42,915 nucleotides of DNA from a virus (lineage: Duplodnaviria; Heunggongvirae; Uroviricota; Caudoviricetes). The stretch's first letter is position 1. Each line of letters starts with the position of its first letter. The position numbers and the translations under genes were made by a program. The notes below the pieces were generated by a model. That model saw only the letters and a list, made by a program, of their open reading frames with translations. It had not been told where the DNA came from and did not search any database. Where the stretch lies: positions 1-42,915 of IMG/VR virus record IMGVR_UViG_2579779116_000016, one strand, 5' to 3'. Of the stretch, positions 1 through 10,810 are shown piece by piece.

Positions 1-1158
1 ATGCTCACCGTTAAGCAGATTGAAGCAGCAAAGCCGAAAGAAAAACCATACCGCCTACTCGATGGTAATGGCCTGTACCTTTATGTCCCTGTGTCAGGGA
101 AAAAGGTATGGCAGCTTCGCTACAAGATTGACGGTAAGGAGAAAATCCTGACCGTCGGAAAATATCCGCTTATGACTTTGCAGGAAGCAAGGGATAAAGC
201 ATGGACCGCGAGGAAAGACATCTCGGTTGGCATCGATCCGGTAAAGGCGAAAAAGGCTTCGTCTAACAACAATTCCTTTAGTGCGATTTACAAGGAATGG
301 TACGAGCACAAGAAGCAAGTCTGGTCAGTAGGCTATGCAACTGAACTTGCCAAAATGTTTGATGACGACATTTTACCCATCATCGGCGGTCTTGAGATTC
401 AGGATATTGAGCCGATGCAACTGTTGGAAGTAATCCGCAGATTTGAAGATCGCGGTGCAATGGAGCGAGCCAACAAAGCACGCAGAAGATGCGGCGAGGT
501 TTTCCGTTACGCTATTGTCACCGGAAGGGCTAAATATAACCCGGCACCTGACCTTGCAGACGCCATGAAAGGATACCGCAAGAAGAACTTCCCGTTTCTT
601 CCAGCAGACCAGATCCCTGCATTCAACAAAGCACTGGCAACATTTTCAGGAAGTATCGTATCGCTCATTGCGACCAAAGTTTTACGCTACACAGCCCTAA
701 GAACGAAAGAGCTTCGTTCCATGCTATGGAAGAACGTCGATTTTGAAAACAGGATTATCACCATCGACGCCAGTGTGATGAAGGGACGCAAAATTCATGT
801 GGTCCCGATGTCGGACCAGGTGGTTGAACTTCTCACTACGCTAAGCTCCATCACTAAACCAGTATCAGAGTTTGTTTTTGCCGGGCGCAACGATAAGAAG
901 AAGCCAATCTGCGAGAACGCGGTATTGCTTGTGATCAAACAAATCGGCTATGAGGGTCTGGAAAGCGGTCACGGATTCAGGCATGAATTCAGCACGATTA
1001 TGAACGAGCACGAATGGCCCGCTGATGCTATTGAAGTGCAACTGGCACATGCCAACGGCGGATCTGTGCGCGGGATTTACAACCATGCTCAGTATCTCGA
1101 TAAGCGCAGAGAAATGATGCAATGGTGGGCGGACTGGCTTGATGAAAAGGTGGAGTGA
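1..1158 (+). CDS. intS: Tyrosine integrase, P4-type, argW-specific (IntS-like)
   Basis: 385-aa ORF starting with ATG at base 1; translation matches my recollection of E. coli IntS of KplE1/CPS-53; position at prophage end next to tRNA-derived att. Confidence 0.88.
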   Translation: MLTVKQIEAAKPKEKPYRLLDGNGLYLYVPVSGKKVWQLRYKIDGKEKILTVGKYPLMTLQEARDKAWTARKDISVGIDPVKAKKASSNNNSFSAIYKEWYEHKKQVWSVGYATELAKMFDDDILPIIGGLEIQDIEPMQLLEVIRRFEDRGAMERANKARRRCGEVFRYAIVTGRAKYNPAPDLADAMKGYRKKNFPFLPADQIPAFNKALATFSGSIVSLIATKVLRYTALRTKELRSMLWKNVDFENRIITIDASVMKGRKIHVVPMSDQVVELLTTLSSITKPVSEFVFAGRNDKKKPICENAVLLVIKQIGYEGLESGHGFRHEFSTIMNEHEWPADAIEVQLAHANGGSVRGIYNHAQYLDKRREMMQWWADWLDEKVE

Positions 1159-1168
1159 TCCACCTTAG

Positions 1169-1618
1169 CTATCGAATGACACAAAGCCTTGAAATCCAGT
1201 GCAAAGCTTTTGGTACCTTGGTTTTGTCTAACGTCAAAGGGCAATCATCAAACTCACCTGTACGCGCATCGTTGATGATGTAGGTGATCACGCCAAACAC
1301 TGGCCGTGATGTATCCGACCCATCGTCTTTCAGCGGTAATGGCTCTCTTCTCCCATTTTCAGGGTTTTCCAGATACGGCTGCGGATGTGTCCTGTAGCGC
1401 ATAATCCTGAACTCACCATCAATAGCGCACACCAATAGAGAACCGTCTTTCGGTGTCAGCGACGAGTCGACGATAAGCATTGCACCTTTCATGATGCCAG
1501 CGCGCAGGTATGTAGAGCCCGCTATCATCATGTACGTAGCCGCCGGATGCGCGATTAGACGCTTGTCGAGCGATATGCGCTCCTCTACGTAATCTTGTGC
1601 TGGACTCGGGAATCCCAT
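1169..1618 (-). CDS. UmuD'-like protein (S24 peptidase/LexA C-terminal fold) beginning at the position of the UmuD' N-terminus; catalytic Ser/Lys apparently substituted
   Basis: 149-aa ORF with ATG and GGAGG RBS; N-terminus GFPSPAQDYVEERI...HPAATY...LIVDS...DGEF...VFGV aligns with UmuD from its Cys24-Gly25 cleavage site onward; positions of UmuD Ser60 and Lys97 appear to be Thr and Met/Arg by eye alignment; LexA box immediately upstream. Confidence 0.6.
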   Translation of the reverse strand: MGFPSPAQDYVEERISLDKRLIAHPAATYMMIAGSTYLRAGIMKGAMLIVDSSLTPKDGSLLVCAIDGEFRIMRYRTHPQPYLENPENGRREPLPLKDDGSDTSRPVFGVITYIINDARTGEFDDCPLTLDKTKVPKALHWISRLCVIR

Positions 1619-1655: not shown

Positions 1656-1743
1656 TTATTGATCGGTGATGTCGATCAAGTGCTGTCTCATTTGATGTCT
1701 AGATGCTAGTATTTATGGCATTGAAAATTACAAGGAATTTGTT

Positions 1744-2406
1744 ATGAAAATTAGCAAGGGTTTGTTGGTGGCTGTGTTATGCGTTGTTGGATTGGCGTTA
1801 ACTTTCTTTATTAGAAGGGAGTATTTATCTAGCGAGAAACAAAACAAAATAAACAACTTCCAATCAGTGATGATGGACTTCAAAGACATGAACCTTGACC
1901 AGGCTGATGGTGACTATATTGTTTTTGGTGACTCTTTGATTCAGGGGATGAGCCATTATATTCTTGGCGTTAAATACGTCAACATGGGTGTTGGTGGGTA
2001 TACAGCATCGCAAATCACACAGTTAATTACATCTTCAAGCTTAGAGAAATATAAGAAAGTGCTCATTGAAGGTGGTGTTAATGATGCTCTTAGTCAATTA
2101 ACAGCAGAGCAGATAGGAAGGAAGATGAATGAAGCAATGGACGCAGCCCATGGAAAGGAGATCGTTCTTATTCAGATTCTACCATTGCTTGAATCTGCCA
2201 GGAAAGATTTCAAGAGAGTAAATGATAAAATACGTACCATCAATGCAATAACATCAAAACATTGCAAATCTATGCCTAAATGCTCTGTTGTTGATGTTCC
2301 AGAAGACTTTTTTAATGCTCCTAATGATTTTTATATGCCTGATGGAGTTCATCTTAGAAGTTATGGTTACCATGCATGGGCAAATCACATCAAACTTGCA
2401 CTATAG
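1744..2406 (+). CDS. SGNH/GDSL-family hydrolase with N-terminal membrane anchor (cargo gene in the lysogenic-conversion slot between int and tailspike)
   Basis: 220-aa ORF, AT-rich; N-terminal hydrophobic segment LLVAVLCVVGLALTFFI; GDSL block IVFGDSLIQG about 20 residues after the anchor; AAGGAA RBS. Confidence 0.7.
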   Translation: MKISKGLLVAVLCVVGLALTFFIRREYLSSEKQNKINNFQSVMMDFKDMNLDQADGDYIVFGDSLIQGMSHYILGVKYVNMGVGGYTASQITQLITSSSLEKYKKVLIEGGVNDALSQLTAEQIGRKMNEAMDAAHGKEIVLIQILPLLESARKDFKRVNDKIRTINAITSKHCKSMPKCSVVDVPEDFFNAPNDFYMPDGVHLRSYGYHAWANHIKLAL

Positions 2407-2433: not shown

Positions 2434-4650
2434 TTATTGTATGTTTGTTATCTCTCCTGATACCATTGCTTTTATTGTCTGCCCGCCAGCTGGCTCTCCT
2501 TTGAGTACGAATCCCACCCTGCTAGTGTTTGAACCAAAAAGAAGATCTGCCCCTTTAGTTTGGTCGTAGAAAGTGTATGCATTGACGGTCCTCACCACTT
2601 GATCTGATGTTGTCACCCCAATTAATGATGTTTGACCATCCCTCTTAAGAAGTCCAGATAGTCCTGTAGATCTGCGCAAAGCGGCTGATATAGATATTGC
2701 GTAACCATCATATCCTGAAGGGGTTGATAGTTGAGCAAATCTTAGGAATTCAATACTTTGACCAGCTGCAGCAGTTGCATAGAGTCCATTGAAAATGAAT
2801 TTAGTAAATGATTGTCCACTTACGGTGGTGTCATAGCCTCTCTCGCAGGATAACGATTTAAACGCATATGTTGCATTTAGGAGTATTGTATTTTGTGATC
2901 TGGTAAGATTGTTTATCTTCATTGAAGGGAATTTCGACATATCTAGAATTCCATTTATCGATCCATTTCTGTCTGCTATGTCTATCTTTGTTTGTGTGTC
3001 TGTGTAATTGTTCTCAATGGTAAAAGATGAGAAAACACTAGGGTTGTCAATTTGATGGAATGTTTGACCAAAGTAATTACCGGAAATTGTGAGAGATTCT
3101 GGCTGGTTGTAGATGTATAGCTTGCTCTTTTCTACGTACATCCCAGTTACGCTTACGCCCTTGCAGTTTCCTATCTGTATTTCTCCGGACTCTACAGTGG
3201 AGTTGGTCAGGCTGATTCCCCATGTGTCAACGTAGACATCCTTCCCTGACTCGTGAGCATAGATAAGAGCGCTATCAAGTGTTAGCGTGTTTCCTGATAT
3301 TCCTGTTATTAACTTCGCATCAAGTCCCGCGTTTCCCTGAATCTCTATTATGTCCCACTTTAAAAAACCAGAAGCGCTTGCAACTGTTATCGAGTTGGCA
3401 CCTGCGGCAACATCTCTGGAAAGCGTCGTCTTTGGTGCATTGATGTTTATCGCTGCGGATCCAGATTGTCCGCTAGCTTGCAGGTAGCATCCCCCATGGA
3501 GTTTCACGGAGTTACCCCTCACTCTTACACCATTGAGGGTTCTTACTGAGCCGTTGATGGTTCCTGCAGTTTTCCCTGTGAACTCACCAACGATGCAGCA
3601 GATATCGACATCTGAAGATCGATGATTTACTGACTTGAAATCCCAGTGTCCATAAAACGCGTTAAGTACAACCCTGTCAGCGGCTAATGCCCCACGGGTT
3701 GAGACGCCGCCATCAATTGTAAATCCATCAACAATCTGGTCATGGTGAAGGCGGTCTCTCGATCTATCTCTTGGGTCAATGATTATATGGTGCATTGAGA
3801 TATCAGAAGATGTTGAGTTGAGGACTGTGCCGTCCTGACCAGCTCCAGACCACCTAAATCCTCTCTTGTCTACATCGAGCGTGAAACCTCCTATGCTGTA
3901 AACTCCGGCAGGGAAAGAAAGGCTCCTCATGTTTGCCTGCGCACGAGCAACACGGTTCCCCTCATCAACAGCTGCGACGTTTTCTACATCAGTGCCGCCA
4001 AACTCGAATGACGCATAGTTCATGTCAGGGAAACATACCAGATTGGCGTATTTACCTGCGGGCAACGTCAGGCTAAAAGTATTCAGATCCTGATTGGAGG
4101 AAATAACCCATTCTGATACGTTTTTTACTCCTTTCCCGTTCACGTACGTTCTGACGTGCATTCCATCTGGTACGCCACTAAAGTCTGTTTCCAGTAACTG
4201 TGTTACAGTTTCTATAGTGTAAATACGTCGAGACAAGGCGTTAGCAACGGTAGTGTCTAATGGGTCACCAACAAGAATTGATCCTGTACTCTCTCCGAGT
4301 CTTTGCTCAAGGCGATCAGGGTCATACTTCAGCACATTAGGAAAATAGAACTGCTGTGCACCATACGCATCATAAACAGCCATAGAATGGCCTTGCACAG
4401 TTACGAATTTGGCAATCTGTCCGTTATATACAGGATATCCAGCAGCGTTAATAATAATTGGTTGCGAAACAGGAACGTGAGAACCGTCTTCGTTCTCCAC
4501 ATAAACCTGAATCTGGTTTTCAGGATTTACAGGGTCAGTGTCAATTTTTCCGATATAAATTTTACCATTGGCTACGGCTTTAAAAGAACGCGCCATAGTG
4601 AAGAGTTGCGAAGGCATCGATACGATCACATTGGCTGTAATGTCTGTCAT
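2434..4650 (-). CDS. Tailspike protein: P22-type N-terminal head-binding domain fused to a distinct receptor-binding beta-helix domain
   Basis: 738-aa ORF; first ~110 residues ([11 protein letters not shown]...[33 protein letters not shown]...[12 protein letters not shown]...VLKYDPD) closely resemble the P22 gp9 head-binding domain; remainder is Gly/Ser/Asn-rich repeat typical of beta-helix tailspikes. Confidence 0.9.
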
Positions 4651-6660: not shown

Positions 6661-7026
6661 TCACTCCGGCTTTTTGATATGTCGCTCGCAGAACTCAACA
6701 AGCCTGCTCATTAAGTAGCAGTAAGTCTCGTTGGCTCTTCCTGGTTCAACATCAACACCTACCCTTGAGCAGATATCGAATGCCATGTGAGCGCACTCAT
6801 GGGCAATAGTAGATAGTTTGCCATTGAACACGCCTATCACATGCAAAACACCATTCTCGCTACTCATTGTATGAGACGCTCCGTTGGCGTCCGAGTCATG
6901 CACGTCAACGCCAAGTTTTTGATGCAGGCGTTGCCATTCTGGAAAGTCTCTACAAAACACAATTGTACCGCTCTCAAAGAGCGGTACGAGCATCTTTGGT
7001 ACGTTTCCAATGTTAACTTTTTTCAT
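6661..7026 (-). CDS. Small HExxH zinc-metallopeptidase-like protein (ImmA/IrrE, DUF955-like motif)
   Basis: 121-aa ORF with ATG; motif KLSTIAHECAHMAFD resembles the (F)T(I/L)AHE(L/C)(G/A)H signature of ImmA/IrrE peptidases, with Glu residues 14 and 20 positions after the second His. Confidence 0.5.
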   Translation of the reverse strand: MKKVNIGNVPKMLVPLFESGTIVFCRDFPEWQRLHQKLGVDVHDSDANGASHTMSSENGVLHVIGVFNGKLSTIAHECAHMAFDICSRVGVDVEPGRANETYCYLMSRLVEFCERHIKKPE

Positions 7027-7060
7027 GGTATCCTGCGCAAAACTAAGGAGAGTTAATTAT

Positions 7061-7546
7061 ATGAAAAAATCACTGTTAATTATCCCGCTTCTGCTGGCTG
7101 GGTGCGCAAAAGTAAGCGACTATCAGGCAAGTTGCGAGCAACGCTATCCAAAGCTTAGCGATATGGCTAATTGCCTTGATGCCAGCTTGAAGAACGACTC
7201 TCGCATGGCATCAGCACCAACACCTAAGCTGTATGTCCTTGCTGCGAAGATGCTCGGGCAAGGTGTCGATGAAGGCAAGATAAGTGACACACAGGCAAGA
7301 CTTGAACTTCAGAATCTTTATGTTCAATTACAAAGCCAAGAACAAGCACAACAAATAGCACAAAGCCAAGCATTCCAGCAGGCTTTATTGAATTATCAGG
7401 CTGTAAACACAATGCAAGCGATCGAGCAAAAAGCGCGCCAGCCTGTTATAACTCAACCTTACCCAACACGCGTTGACACATATACAAACTGCAATTCAGG
7501 ATTTGGAAACACGGTAACATGCAACAGTAGCAGTAATATCAGATAG
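7061..7546 (+). CDS. Lipoprotein with Gln-rich coiled-coil region (cargo in the sieA slot); candidate superinfection-exclusion factor
   Basis: ATG at 7061 with AAGGAG RBS; signal peptide and lipobox MKKSLLIIPLLLAGC; Q-rich segment QLQSQEQAQQIAQSQAFQQALLNYQ; C-terminal Cys/Asn/Ser-rich tail. Confidence 0.65.
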   Translation: MKKSLLIIPLLLAGCAKVSDYQASCEQRYPKLSDMANCLDASLKNDSRMASAPTPKLYVLAAKMLGQGVDEGKISDTQARLELQNLYVQLQSQEQAQQIAQSQAFQQALLNYQAVNTMQAIEQKARQPVITQPYPTRVDTYTNCNSGFGNTVTCNSSSNIR

Positions 7547-7559
7547 TTATATCTTATTT

Positions 7560-9407
7560 TTATTGCTGTTCTGCTGTAATTTGGCTTGAAAGTATAGGGC
7601 GTATCGCATTTGCAGCATTATTTAGCGCTCTTTCATAGGCTGGTGTTCCTGCTTTGGTGTTTGCCAAACGTAAGAGAGCATTCCTTGCTGCTTTTGACTC
7701 ATACAAGCGCATCATTGCACCGAAACCAGCCTCAAGCCCCATTGATACGCCAAGAGTCGCAGTTGCGCCAATCGTCCTTATCCTGTTGGCTTGCGATTGC
7801 CCCGTCTGTGTTACCACATTTGCGGTGTCTGACCTTGCTGTTTGCTGTAGAACTTCATGAAGAGCATCAAGCTCTTTCATGTGCTTTCCAGAAAAAATAG
7901 TGTTGTAAATTTCACCGCCTGACTGAGATTTCAGCTTATTAACTTCAGTGATGAACTTGGCTGGAGAGTCACCGGACTTTTCCGCTATTTTGCTGACGTA
8001 AGCCGCACGCATAGCATCTTTTCCTTTATCATCCAATGCGCTCCAGATTCGTTTCACGTCAGATGGTTTTCTGCTTAATACAACGGCATTTATAAGTTCA
8101 GGACTGGCTTCACTACTTGCCTTATTGAGCTTGTTAGCAATGTTTTTATTAAGCACCTTATTATAAACGTTTGCATAATCGGAATTTGCTTTAAGGTATT
8201 TTGCTGCGTCTGAAGCCCCGAGGTTTTTAGCAACTGCGTTACGAAGGTCTTTTGACATTGCATTCTCTACCATATTGGTAGCTGCTTTTGCCTGGTTAGG
8301 GAAGACCATAGCATCTCCCTGAACATTAGATCTAAATGCCGTTCTGTGCTGACGCAGGAGATCAAACGTAACATCCAAATCAGTTGCAGGGTTTGCTAAT
8401 TCTTCACGTAGGTTACGCAAGGATGTAAGCAGGCTTTGATTGGCTGAAGTACCAAGCCGTTCCTGTCTTGCGATCGCTGTATTCAGAGCATTCATGGTAT
8501 TTGTAGTATCAACTGCGGCATTACCCATTTTATTGGTGACGTCATTGATAACAGCGCCAGCAGCATCCTTCCGCCCCCTTAACGTGGTGGTCAGAGATTT
8601 CACCACATCATCAGGGTTGTACTCACCAAAACGGTCAAAATAATTACTTACCAGCTTACTACGCGTTGCATATTGCTCAGCTCGCTTTGAGCCTGTCCCG
8701 AGCAAAGCCCCCTCGGCATCCTGAGTAATGCCACGAGTGAAAGCATTTTTCGGCGTGATAACATCAGATGTCATTGGTGTCACGCCCATCGATTCTGATG
8801 TGGCAATTTTCTTCGCCACTTCTGGCGCAATATCACCTTTTATAGCCGTTATTCCACGCCCTATTCCCTTTGCTGCTGCGGAAAGAACACCCTGAGCGGC
8901 AAGGTTAACTCCGGCATTTTTAGCTGCATTTTGTGCGAAATCGCCTTTCTGATTTGCGGCCTCTGCCAGTGATCCAATAGCCATGCTTCCTGCCGTTCCA
9001 ACGCCTGGAACTAAATACCCGCCAATTGTTTCTCCAACTTGAGCGTAGGGGTCTGTCGGTCTGTCTACTGGACGATAAACATCATCCAAAACTTTTGGCC
9101 CACCAAGCCCCTGACTGATTGCATTAATCAGACTTGCGCCACCCTGCAATACGTCAAATGGTATGTTTACCAGACCACGACCAGCCTGTTCTGCAATTTG
9201 CCCTGCACTTTGACCACCAGTGAGCCAATCGCCAGCTTGTTGCATCAATGATGGGTCTTCCCGTGTTGGTGCATTATTGGCCTGATTAACTGTTTGTTGC
9301 TGAACAGCCTGACCAGCAAAATACTCATCAATGGCGGTGCCAATATCTTCGGTGCTCGTACCATCAGGAAAGGTAAATGTCTTACCGTTTGCAGTTACTT
9401 TCATCAT
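7560..9407 (-). CDS. Ejection (internal virion) protein, P22 gp16 equivalent
   Basis: 615-aa ORF, Ala/Gly/Gln-rich; size and position immediately after the gp20 equivalent match P22 gene 16. Confidence 0.85.
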
Positions 9408-10810
9408 TCCACCGTAAATTGAATGCCTGATTTTGAGGTATATGATCCAACCTGATTCCGTGGTTCTCCTGAAGGTGTCGAATCTTGTGCTGGCGCTGCG
9501 TCAGTATTCATTGACATATACCGCTTAACGGCACTCCCCAATGATTCACCTTTTTTAACATCCAACCCCAATATCTGACCGCCATTACGCGATTGTCCAG
9601 GGTTGCCATTCGCGCTCATCCACTCGGCTTTAAACTCATTAAACTGCGCGTTTCGTCGCTCAAGGTTTGCCATTGCATCAAGCCATCTTGCGACCGTCTC
9701 AGGGTTATCCATGTCAGTTGGCGCACCCTGTCGAACGATCTCAACGTCTTTATCCGTTGCTGGGCCGGGAGGTAGGAATTTAAGAACCTGACTGTTAACA
9801 AGGGCATTTTGGCGAATGCGCAAATCACGCAATGTTGTATCGCTTCCGGTAAGTTTTGCGAACATGTTCTGTGCGTTACCGAACAAACCTGTCGTTGGTT
9901 TTTCTGCTCTGAACTGTTGAGCAAGCGCACTCATAGAATTGGCTGAGTTTGATGATGCTGTAGCATTGTTTACAGCCGTCTCGATGCCTTTTTCCATGTT
10001 TACTGACAGCTTAGGTGCTTCGCTAATCAACTGCTGAGCCTTTTCCTGCGCTTGCTGCATCTTAAACCCGAACTCTTGCTGATCCAGAGCCAAGCGTTGT
10101 GCTGCGATATTGTGCCCAGTCATTGCTGACTGATAGGAAAGGTTTTGCCCTCTCGCCTGAAGTGCTTCTCCAGCCTGATTGCTGCGGATTGTCTCTGCCA
10201 GCCTGCCTCGGTCAATTTCACGACCAGCCATCTTGTCCTGAACATTGAAGTAATCAATCGGACCAAGAGCAGCCATCCCAAGGTGATCAACAAACTCACC
10301 AAATCCTGAAGGGTTCTGCTGATACATCTGAGCAACGCTGTTAGGGTCAACACCGACGCGAGTCAGTTCCTTGGCGTTGTTTTGCAGCCATGATTGCATT
10401 GCTTCTGGAGACGATGACGCAAGGCGTGCGCCAGCCGCTAAGGTGCCGATAGAATTACGCTGATCTTCATCAATGAATCCCATGCCTTTACGAACGGATT
10501 CAATCTGGTCTGGATATTGAGTAGCCAACTGACGCAAAGCACCGCGATCACCAGACGCATAAGCATTAGCGTACGCCTGCTGAAATTCTTTCTGCCGCTG
10601 AGCCTGCTTTTCCTGCTGAAACACCCCCGCAATACCTGAAAGGCCTTGCAAAGCAGTCAGCCCAACATTGTTAGCGCCTGAACGCTCAATATCATTGTTC
10701 TGCCTGATAAGCTGAAGCGTATTGCCGATGTCATTTACGCTCGGAGCGTTTGAGTTGACGCCGCCGATACCAGCCAACAATCCGCCGTTTGTTCCTTGCC
10801 AAGTAGCCAT
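9404..10810 (-). CDS. Ejection protein, P22 gp20 equivalent
   Basis: 468-aa ORF; size and synteny with P22 gene 20 (7-20-16 ejection protein block). Confidence 0.85.

Follow-up and report, generated by a model that had tools for sequence, protein, structure and literature searches.

Three routes by which phages change the O-antigen of their host are known: glucosylation (Gtr), O-acetylation by a stand-alone AT3 acyltransferase (Oac) and O-acetylation by a fused AT3-SGNH protein (OafB). In P22 and Sf6, gtrABC and oac lie in the same neighbourhood, near the integrase gene int and the tailspike gene, and modify the O-antigen that is the phage's own receptor. Here we describe a gene in this slot in a 42,915-nucleotide (nt) stretch of DNA from a virus of the Caudoviricetes (IMG/VR record IMGVR_UViG_2579779116_000016, positions 1 to 42,915; the whole stretch is referred to as the window). 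The gene (1744-2406, plus strand, including the stop codon) starts with ATG and encodes a protein of 220 residues, which in a 99.9%-identical genome is named 'SGNH/GDSL hydrolase family protein' by the Prokaryotic Genome Annotation Pipeline (PGAP). Whereas gtrABC of P22 and oac of Sf6 encode glucosyltransferases or a stand-alone AT3 acetyltransferase, this gene encodes an SGNH domain only, and in our literature search no description of an SGNH-only conversion gene was found. In a study of Kapi1, a phage that like the present one is found at argW, an acyltransferase-like gene in the same slot was tested without result, and a 2026 Klebsiella study mentions in passing SGNH proteins that adjoin receptor-binding proteins.

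Combining the architecture of the protein with its genomic associations, we suggest that it probably alters the O-acetylation state of the glycan receptor of the neighbouring tailspike, in one direction or the other. More tentatively, we suggest that it does so as an orphan de-O-acetylase acting on that glycan.

Architecture of the SGNH protein

Pfam matches the protein to Lipase_GDSL_2 (PF13472) at 2.9e-15 and to Lipase_GDSL (PF00657) at 2.4e-9, both over the curated cut-offs, and gives no match to PF19040, the family with the atypical oxyanion hole of OafA and OafB. When conservation is scored over 27-28 aligned relatives, four catalytic blocks stand out, all encoded on the plus strand: block I (G62-D63-S64, 1927-1935) is invariant, is encoded by the codons ggt gac tct as read from the sequence and contains the predicted nucleophile Ser64; block II (N80-M-G-V-G-G85, 1981-1998) would supply the oxyanion-hole glycine, with N80, G82, G84 and G85 invariant in 28 of 28 aligned relatives and V79-G85 wholly invariant in the 27-sequence family alignment; block III (G110-G-V-N113-D114, 2071-2085), with G110, G111, N113 and D114 invariant, would supply the oxyanion-hole asparagine; and block V (D200-G-V-H203, 2341-2352), with D200, G201 and H203 invariant, would supply the acid and the base of the triad. 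In an AlphaFold2 model (mean predicted local distance difference test, pLDDT, 84.7), residues 5-53 form one long N-terminal helix ahead of an alpha/beta core, and a Foldseek search with this model returned 81 PDB matches at E<=1e-3, of which the best 50 are all SGNH enzymes with template-modelling (TM) scores of up to 0.73. By its blocks I, II, III and V and by the three-layer alpha/beta/alpha flavodoxin-like fold of the model, the protein belongs to the SGNH superfamily, as the initial annotation of this DNA had proposed.

The top Foldseek ranks are taken by platelet-activating factor (PAF) acetylhydrolase Ib and a sialic acid esterase from Phocaeicola, at a TM score of about 0.7 and an identity of 16-20%; the transferase domain of OatA follows at rank 46. 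A comparison of the family profile with PDB sequences gave a similar picture, with a match at 8e-17 to the Bacteroides sialate O-acetylesterase 6njc, matches to PAF acetylhydrolases as well, and PatB at 0.22. In fold and sequence the protein thus appears closest to acetyl-esterases, and its oxyanion hole is predicted to be canonical (GDS, G, GxND, DxxH), unlike that of OafA and OafB. In a fold search of viral structures, SGNH folds were found almost exclusively within large tail proteins, and no small anchored homologue was detected.

Ahead of the catalytic core, residues 5-23 (KGLLVAVLCVVGLALTFFI; 1756-1812, plus strand) form the single hydrophobic segment of the protein; the Kyte-Doolittle hydropathy of these 19 residues averages 2.45. 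Every full-length relative has an equivalent, in agreement with the N-terminal anchor that had been claimed for the protein from its sequence. In a fused 595-residue homologue (see below), it is the extra helix behind the AT3 domain that aligns with this segment. Between anchor and core lies a juxtamembrane linker (residues 24-57; 1813-1914, plus strand) with the motif FQSVMMDFKxMNxxQADGD, which is conserved across clades at 35-40% identity; F46, K47, N50, Q53, D55 and G56 are invariant and F39, Q40 and M43 nearly so, and the linker would correspond in position to the structured SGNH extension of OafB. Two cysteines, C174 and C180 (2263-2283, plus strand), are invariant in the family, and the pattern C...NC recurs in the consensus of distant relatives. 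Conserved as they are and located outside the membrane segment, the two may form a disulfide in the periplasm. Because the anchor is homologous to the post-AT3 helix of the fused relative and the cysteine pair is invariant, we infer an N-in, C-out topology with a periplasmic SGNH domain; charge bias leaves the topology of the clade of the window protein unfixed.

Association with the tailspike receptor-binding domain

The family is small, amounting to 12 clusters at E<=1e-30 in an exhaustive hidden Markov model (HMM) search of 1.84 billion representative proteins. It is hardly represented among 50,697 sequenced phage genomes and is rare among complete Escherichia coli genomes, and a scan of species-representative genomes with the family alignment gave no match. 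Tailspike or tail-fibre genes adjoin the gene in all enterobacterial contexts examined, and wherever these include a spike gene, the SGNH gene converges on its 3' end. The contexts, cited here by our locus numbers (L), include P22-like backbones (the window, L003-L008 and L009), spikes with a Tail_spike_N (PF18668) anchor next to NlpC/P60-type tail genes (L013-L016, L021, L029, L031 and L035), T7-like phages or spikes with a T7-type fibre N-terminus (L020, L034 and L041), and a Mu-like myovirus context (L010-L012).

In the window, the gene converges with that for the tailspike (738 residues; 2434-4650, minus strand). The N-terminal part of the tailspike is a P22-type head-binding domain (4273-4650, minus strand; Pfam Head_binding at 7.5e-67, with PDB sequence matches to the N-termini of the P22 and Sf6 tailspikes), and it is the remaining, receptor-binding part (residues about 127-738; 2434-4272, minus strand), referred to as the receptor-binding domain (RBD), that is co-inherited with the SGNH gene. 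This RBD is 87-94% identical, depending on the segment, to those of L009 (Enterobacter cancerogenus) and L031 and 58% identical to that of the viral contig L020, despite three different N-terminal anchors, and the SGNH identities paired with these RBDs are 81% for L009, 92% for L031 and 78% for L020. Three classes are apparent: class A (the window, L009, L031 and L020) with RBD identities of 58-94% and SGNH identities of 72-92%, class B (L003 and L021) with 91% and 72%, and class C (L013, L014 and L035) with 80-86% and 71-77%. The N-terminal tail anchors vary inside each RBD class, L034 is the single exception to the tracking of SGNH clade and RBD, and the Spearman correlation between SGNH and RBD is 0.68 overall, the pairs being non-independent. 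This repeated block-wise exchange of RBD and SGNH gene suggests a functional cassette, and a link between the gene and tailspike specificity, which had been anticipated from the position of the gene, is thereby strengthened. Because the gene moves with the RBD as one cassette, the data suggest that the SGNH protein acts on the surface polysaccharide recognized by the tailspike.

The spikes that adjoin relatives of the gene indicate what kind of modification may be at stake. In at least five types of relative context the adjacent tailspike has a GDSL/SGNH domain of its own (L003:8722-10959, L013:7699-9945 with the related L014, L021:2361-4634, L034:6588-9086 and L035:6706-8952), and the neighbouring tail-fibre gene of the T7-like L041 (L041:2438-4408) also encodes such a domain. 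In the L003 spike the motifs GDS, GTNEG and DDIH can be read by eye. Published work documents gp63.1 of E. coli phage G7C as an esterase tailspike that requires an O-acetylated glycan. Because the adjacent spikes and fibre carry GDSL/SGNH domains, O-acetyl groups would be expected to matter to the receptors of these phages. An origin of the SGNH moron as a copy of the esterase domain of a neighbouring tailspike was considered and rejected, as BLASTP found no similarity between the two at E<=0.1.

A different explanation of the position of the gene is that it encodes an exported esterase or lipase with an unrelated target, such as acetylated enterobacterial common antigen (ECA), colanic acid, host-derived acetylated nutrient sugars or a lipid ester, and lies where it does because this is a usual insertion site for morons. 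The generic annotations of the family, of GDSL or lysophospholipase type, are compatible with such an enzyme, as are the nearest structures, which include the lipid acetylhydrolase PAF-AH together with sialate esterases, and the relatives in Aeromonas, which are prophage-borne yet located away from tail genes. We nevertheless consider this explanation unlikely given that the gene adjoins tail genes in P22-like, lambdoid, T7-like and Mu-like enterobacterial contexts alike, that the SGNH clade follows the RBD class and that Wzx and AT3 polysaccharide genes are found alongside members of the lineage, as detailed in the next section. Peptidoglycan, which had been named as a second potential substrate, is an unlikely target as well, since E. 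coli is not known to O-acetylate its peptidoglycan.

Links to AT3 acyltransferases and direction of the reaction

In E. coli SRY149, at argW, and in the viral contigs L021-L024, the slot between humD and the tailspike gene holds a gene for an AT3-SGNH fusion of 595 residues (L038, which is E. coli SRY149, 7671-9458; L021:542-2329; the fused form is also represented by P0175). In the fusion, an AT3 domain (PF01757, residues 11-345) is followed by one more transmembrane helix, then by the linker motif described above and by an SGNH domain whose identity is 72% to clade B and 44% to the window protein. Its AT3 half is most like hundreds of stand-alone AT3 proteins of ~375 residues and is fused in two clusters only, so that the OafA-like architecture looks to have been re-created here by a recent, derived fusion of genes. 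P0011 (L003-L008), the commonest variant in E. coli, has an AT3-only gene and a 92-residue AT3 remnant upstream of its SGNH gene. The remnant in L003 (L003:7638-7916) is the N-terminal fragment of an OafA-like AT3 gene and lies between the AT3-only and the SGNH genes, a sign that acetylation genes in the slot turn over. The family gene of L014-L016 and L029 is preceded by a complete OafA-like AT3-SGNH gene of the PF19040 type. Because this upstream acyltransferase has an SGNH domain of its own, the small SGNH protein of L014 is not needed as its partner, and the ratio of nonsynonymous to synonymous substitution rates (dN/dS) of 0.08 for L013 versus L014, without versus with the neighbouring AT3-SGNH gene, indicates equal constraint in the two situations.

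The association extends to bacterial chromosomes. Among 80 genomic loci fetched with a profile of distant relatives (a 17-sequence subset), an AT3 gene lies no more than 32 bp away in 9 of the 21 closest chromosomal relatives. It is mostly on the same strand, and in three cases Wzx is found directly upstream; no AT3 gene accompanies any of ~54 more distant SGNH loci. In Neptunomonas, an anchored relative of 233 residues overlaps an AT3 gene by 4 bp beside pyruvyl-transferase and Wzx genes. Split arrangements, with an anchored SGNH gene followed or overlapped by an AT3-only gene, occur in marine and soil polysaccharide loci (L039/L040 6001-7712; L044, L049-L051, L056, L059 and L075). Cluster look-ups for the distant relatives returned generic names only. 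A Y..LHL motif in the transmembrane helix was considered as a mark of partnership with AT3 and dropped, because it is seen with and without adjacent AT3 genes and is missing in the phage family. Because members are fused to, downstream of or in operons with AT3 genes, the lineage is, on the evidence of these gene arrangements, a part of the periplasmic glycan O-acetylation machinery.

An adjacent or fused AT3 gene is thus present in L003, L014, L021, SRY149, L039 and nine of the 21 chromosomal loci but not in the window, where neither tblastn with three AT3 queries nor an AT3 HMM detected one at E<=10; likewise, no AT3 gene was found near the stand-alone SGNH genes of L009, L020, L031, L013, L034, L035, L010, L017 and L041. 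In the periplasm, acetyl donors are confined to a membrane acyltransferase or an already acetylated glycan. Because there is no other periplasmic donor, an orphan SGNH protein would either hydrolyse acetyl esters or borrow an AT3 protein from the host. Between these, we tentatively favor hydrolysis. In this model, the protein would be a type II membrane protein that starts with a short N-terminal stretch in the cytoplasm, crosses the membrane once and continues through a linker helix into a periplasmic SGNH domain with a complete catalytic apparatus. By descent it would be the exported catalytic module of AT3+SGNH glycan O-acetylation systems, and its target would be the surface polysaccharide that the tailspike recognizes, probably the O-antigen at the outer face of the inner membrane. 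Because the prophage encodes no AT3 protein to deliver acetyl groups from cytoplasmic acetyl-CoA, the reverse half-reaction would be the most likely one: Ser64 would accept an acetyl group from an O-acetylated sugar and water would then release it. In the lysogen, the receptor glycan would become de-O-acetylated, with a change of serotype and weaker binding by related tailspikes as the predicted outcome. Periplasmic topology, substrate, reaction direction and the effect on phage adsorption are the steps of this model that we infer.

Several observations weigh against hydrolysis as the function. The family is tied to acetyl transfer by the AT3 fusions at the same genomic position, the AT3 genes upstream in L003 and L014 and the 9 of 21 chromosomal loci. 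Staphylococcus aureus OatA, a transferase, has a typical oxyanion hole, showing that canonical motifs are compatible with transfer. The tailspike of the window itself contains no GDSL or esterase domain detectable by Pfam. The O-antigen gene cluster of the near-identical host genome, strain APEC_AN-25, is O41-type and contains no recognizable acetyltransferase, so that an acetyl group available for removal is only presumed. Finally, physical linkage contributes to the co-inheritance of SGNH gene and tailspike and could alone yield it. Sequence motifs do not decide between an esterase and the transferase half of an O-acetyltransferase, and the protein may be the latter. The proposal that the gene embodies an esterase-based route distinct from that of the acetyltransferases therefore holds as far as the intact SGNH apparatus is concerned, whereas the distinctness of the route is not established, the family being fused to or downstream of AT3 genes.

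Alternatively, the protein could be a trans-acting transferase module, docking on a host AT3 protein such as the ECA acetylase WecH or another stand-alone AT3 protein, taking over the acetyl group which that partner ferries across the membrane and directing it to a new position of the O-antigen; serotype conversion would then result from a phage that supplies only the half that determines acceptor specificity. The fusion in the identical slot in SRY149 and L021-L024 argues for this possibility, and since its AT3 half comes from the stand-alone class of ~375 residues, AT3 domains of that class can work with this kind of SGNH domain. It also gains from the translationally coupled SGNH+AT3 operons in polysaccharide loci, found among the closest and not among the distant loci, from the combination of N-terminal anchor and SGNH domain, which is that of the acyltransferase partners PatB and DltD, and from the invariant linker, as the equivalent region of OafB sets acceptor specificity; in addition, a review suggests that there may be a 'missing' SGNH protein for stand-alone AT3 enzymes. 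It has to be reconciled with the lack of an AT3 gene in the window or close to most phage-borne copies, and with the spread of the cassette over E. coli, Enterobacter, Lelliottia and Aeromonas, which disfavours one specific host partner. No experimentally demonstrated trans-acting AT3/SGNH pair was found in the literature, and in sequence and fold the protein is nearer to esterases than to any characterized transferase SGNH protein. We regard such borrowing of a host AT3 protein as a serious alternative, somewhat less likely than hydrolysis.

Returning to the de-O-acetylase that we favor, the esterase spikes beside relatives of the gene make the erasure of the receptor by a lysogen-encoded deacetylase an attractive idea. 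In its boldest form, the gene would be the first O-antigen deacetylase of lysogenic conversion, an AT3-stripped SGNH module that erases the O-acetyl groups on which the RBD depends, and phages would swap a 'receptor reader plus receptor eraser' cassette across tail architectures. This scenario is speculative, and we put it forward with considerable reservation.

The link to AT3 also raises the question of whether the gene is a functionless, decaying remnant of an AT3-SGNH gene after loss of its AT3 part. Fused relatives exist and cassette decay is evident in the 92-residue AT3 fragment of L003. Among the stand-alone copies of the window, L009 and L020, however, dN/dS is 0.13-0.29, a range similar to the value of 0.09 for the neighbouring tailspike, all catalytic residues are intact, and by this measure the stand-alone copies are under purifying selection. 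Moreover, the gene has an upstream block of its own (1678-1743, plus strand; ~66 nt conserved in L009, L020 and L031) that includes a Shine-Dalgarno sequence AAGGA (1732-1736, plus strand) and shows no homology to what lies upstream of the fused gene. The same two observations, non-homologous upstream regions and a block common to relatives with different upstream genes, led us to reject an origin by recent in-frame deletion of AT3 from a fused gene, which is also contradicted by the rarity of the fusion and the stand-alone class of its AT3 half. With the fusion looking derived rather than ancestral, the remnant hypothesis appears very improbable.

In keeping with a functional unit, the anatomy of the gene appears to be that of an independent moron, complete with upstream block, ribosome-binding site and terminator. 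This conclusion is drawn because of the conserved block in front of the gene and the GC-rich hairpin behind it (2411-2430), which lies between the convergent SGNH and tailspike genes and is likely a terminator; a terminator scan shows a stem of 8 pairs (6 G-C) ahead of a T-run. A strict sigma-70 scan detected no promoter upstream of the gene, and the promoter is assigned from sequence, with a candidate extended -10 element, TGCTAGTAT, read by eye within the block (1704-1712, plus strand). The gene is a separate transcription unit near int and the tailspike gene, is of atypical base composition and lies on the strand opposite to the tail genes, as morons do. Its GC content is 0.376, compared with 0.467 for the window and 0.442-0.504 for the neighbouring genes, so the AT-richness that had been noted is confirmed. 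Inside the gene, a near-consensus sigma-70-like site is found in antisense orientation (1955-1982, minus strand; TTGACG, a 16-nt spacer and TATAAT, 11/12 matches), which may be due to chance in AT-rich DNA.

The prophage interval and comparison with known systems

The window holds a complete P22-like prophage, with ant/arc, ejection proteins, the region of portal and terminase, a repressor of CI type and a recombinase of Rad52 type; a host gene of the LacY family lies at the far end of the window. A 99.9%-identical stretch is present in one of 5426 complete E. coli genomes, that of strain APEC_AN-25, where the prophage occupies argW and the gene order is yfdC, tRNA-Arg, intS, humD, SGNH gene and tailspike gene. 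The chain-length gene wzzB of this strain is interrupted by a transposase of the ISVsa5 family (L037 27780-30095). The argW end of the prophage is marked by the integrase gene intS (1-1158, plus strand), identified by Pfam integrase domains. Between the ant/arc region and the ejection-protein genes, where related prophages have a SieA-family exclusion gene, lies an open reading frame of 178 codons (7010-7546, plus strand) without a Pfam match.

The interval between intS and the tailspike gene was described in the initial annotation as holding a single gene, with a promoter region abutting the LexA box of the divergent gene. It holds two genes, the second being a divergent HumD/UmuD-like gene (1169-1618, minus strand; NCBIfam HumD at 1.9e-63 and Pfam Peptidase_S24) that is outside the SGNH unit. 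Its product of 149 residues matches the 129-residue HumD profile over residues 1-128 and continues for ~20 residues to the end of intS, and the humD copy of the near-identical APEC_AN-25 genome is labelled an incomplete pseudogene by PGAP. The LexA box (TACTGTATATGCATACAGTA, 1636-1655) is a perfect match 18 nt upstream of the humD start codon and the only one in the window, against a chance expectation of 0.01. The upstream block of the SGNH gene begins at about 1678, 22 nt past the box, and in L020, in which a KilA-N gene takes the place of humD, the block is kept and the box is missing. Because the block starts beyond the box and persists without it, we assign the box to humD rather than to the SGNH gene. 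Upstream of the SGNH gene in the window, L009, L013 and L031, and not in L020, there is a divergent SOS-type gene with a palindrome resembling a LexA box; this gene is HumD/S24-like in the window and L009 and is represented by a pair of small open reading frames (79 and 102-106 residues) in L013 and L031.

The assignment of the interval to glycan-modifying genes agrees with the sister prophages, in which the same slot is filled by an AT3 acyltransferase gene (L003-L008), by the AT3-SGNH fusion (SRY149) or by another SGNH gene (phage 683R2). The last is a distinct gene of 30% identity in Lederbergvirus vB_EcoP-683R2 (L002, 2127-2663). Its annotated start is probably too far downstream, as ~60 nt of in-frame sequence ahead of it resemble the coding sequence of a signal peptide (MFLLSIPFFSFA). 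In Lelliottia-type and other prophages, the family gene is directly preceded by the gene for a second anchored SGNH-like protein, of 289-291 residues (L010:7099-7968 and L035:5104-5979); in the L010 copy the His of block V is replaced by Asn, and this copy may be inactive.

An SGNH-only gene in the conversion slot that is under selection and travels with the RBD adds to receptor modification based on O-acetylation by phages. If the protein is a deacetylase, it would represent a new biochemical route to receptor masking and would complement the finding that many receptor-binding proteins of temperate phages are deacetylases. If it acts in acetylation with a host AT3 protein, stand-alone AT3 proteins would be re-targetable by a separate SGNH protein, which bears on the question of their 'missing' SGNH partner, as do the chromosomal SGNH+AT3 operons. 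In either case, consequences would be expected for serotyping, for O-antigen vaccines and for the prediction of phage host range. The orphan SGNH protein, the cassette of RBD plus modifier and the split SGNH+AT3 operons provide three leads.

Among known systems, OafA of Salmonella and OafB of prophage BTP1 resemble the window protein in having a periplasmic SGNH domain tethered by a transmembrane helix and a structured linker, a Ser-Asp-His triad and conserved cysteine pairs, and OafB is a prophage-borne O-antigen modifier, just as a sister of the present prophage has, in the same slot, an AT3 fusion whose SGNH half belongs to the family of the window protein. The extra helix and linker that place the SGNH domain outside the cytoplasm in fusions of the OafA/OafB/OatA type have their equivalent in the anchor and linker of the window protein, whose SGNH domain would likewise face the periplasm. 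In contrast to these fusions, the window protein lacks the 10-helix AT3 domain (PF01757) and has 220 residues and one transmembrane helix; moreover, its SGNH domain is not of the PF19040 type of OafA and OafB and is canonical in blocks II and III, and OafB is neither among its PDB sequence matches nor among the best 50 of its 81 fold matches. The best profile and fold matches, PAF acetylhydrolase Ib and the sialate O-acetylesterases (6njc and 7pzg), have the four catalytic blocks in common with the window protein and are all acetyl-specific esterases. Unlike the window protein, they are soluble or secreted, lack the anchor and linker, are not phage-borne and are unlinked to AT3 or tail genes.

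Esterase tailspikes such as gp63.1 of G7C and the SGNH receptor-binding proteins of Klebsiella prophages are phage SGNH enzymes that de-O-acetylate the receptor glycan, and similar spikes adjoin relatives of the window gene. Being virion components, they act on the cell from the outside at infection, whereas the window protein is a small, inner-membrane-anchored product of a moron on the opposite strand, without BLASTP similarity to them. The PatA/PatB (with the esterase Ape1), DltB/DltD and AlgI/AlgJ/AlgX systems differ in that their PatA/DltB/AlgI-type carriers are MBOAT and not AT3 proteins, in that their targets are peptidoglycan, teichoic acid and alginate, and in that the profile match to PatB is under significance. 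What they share with the arrangement discussed here is a polytopic acyl carrier and a separately encoded, N-terminally anchored SGNH-type protein for the final transfer, and an SGNH esterase can be encoded in the same operon as well.

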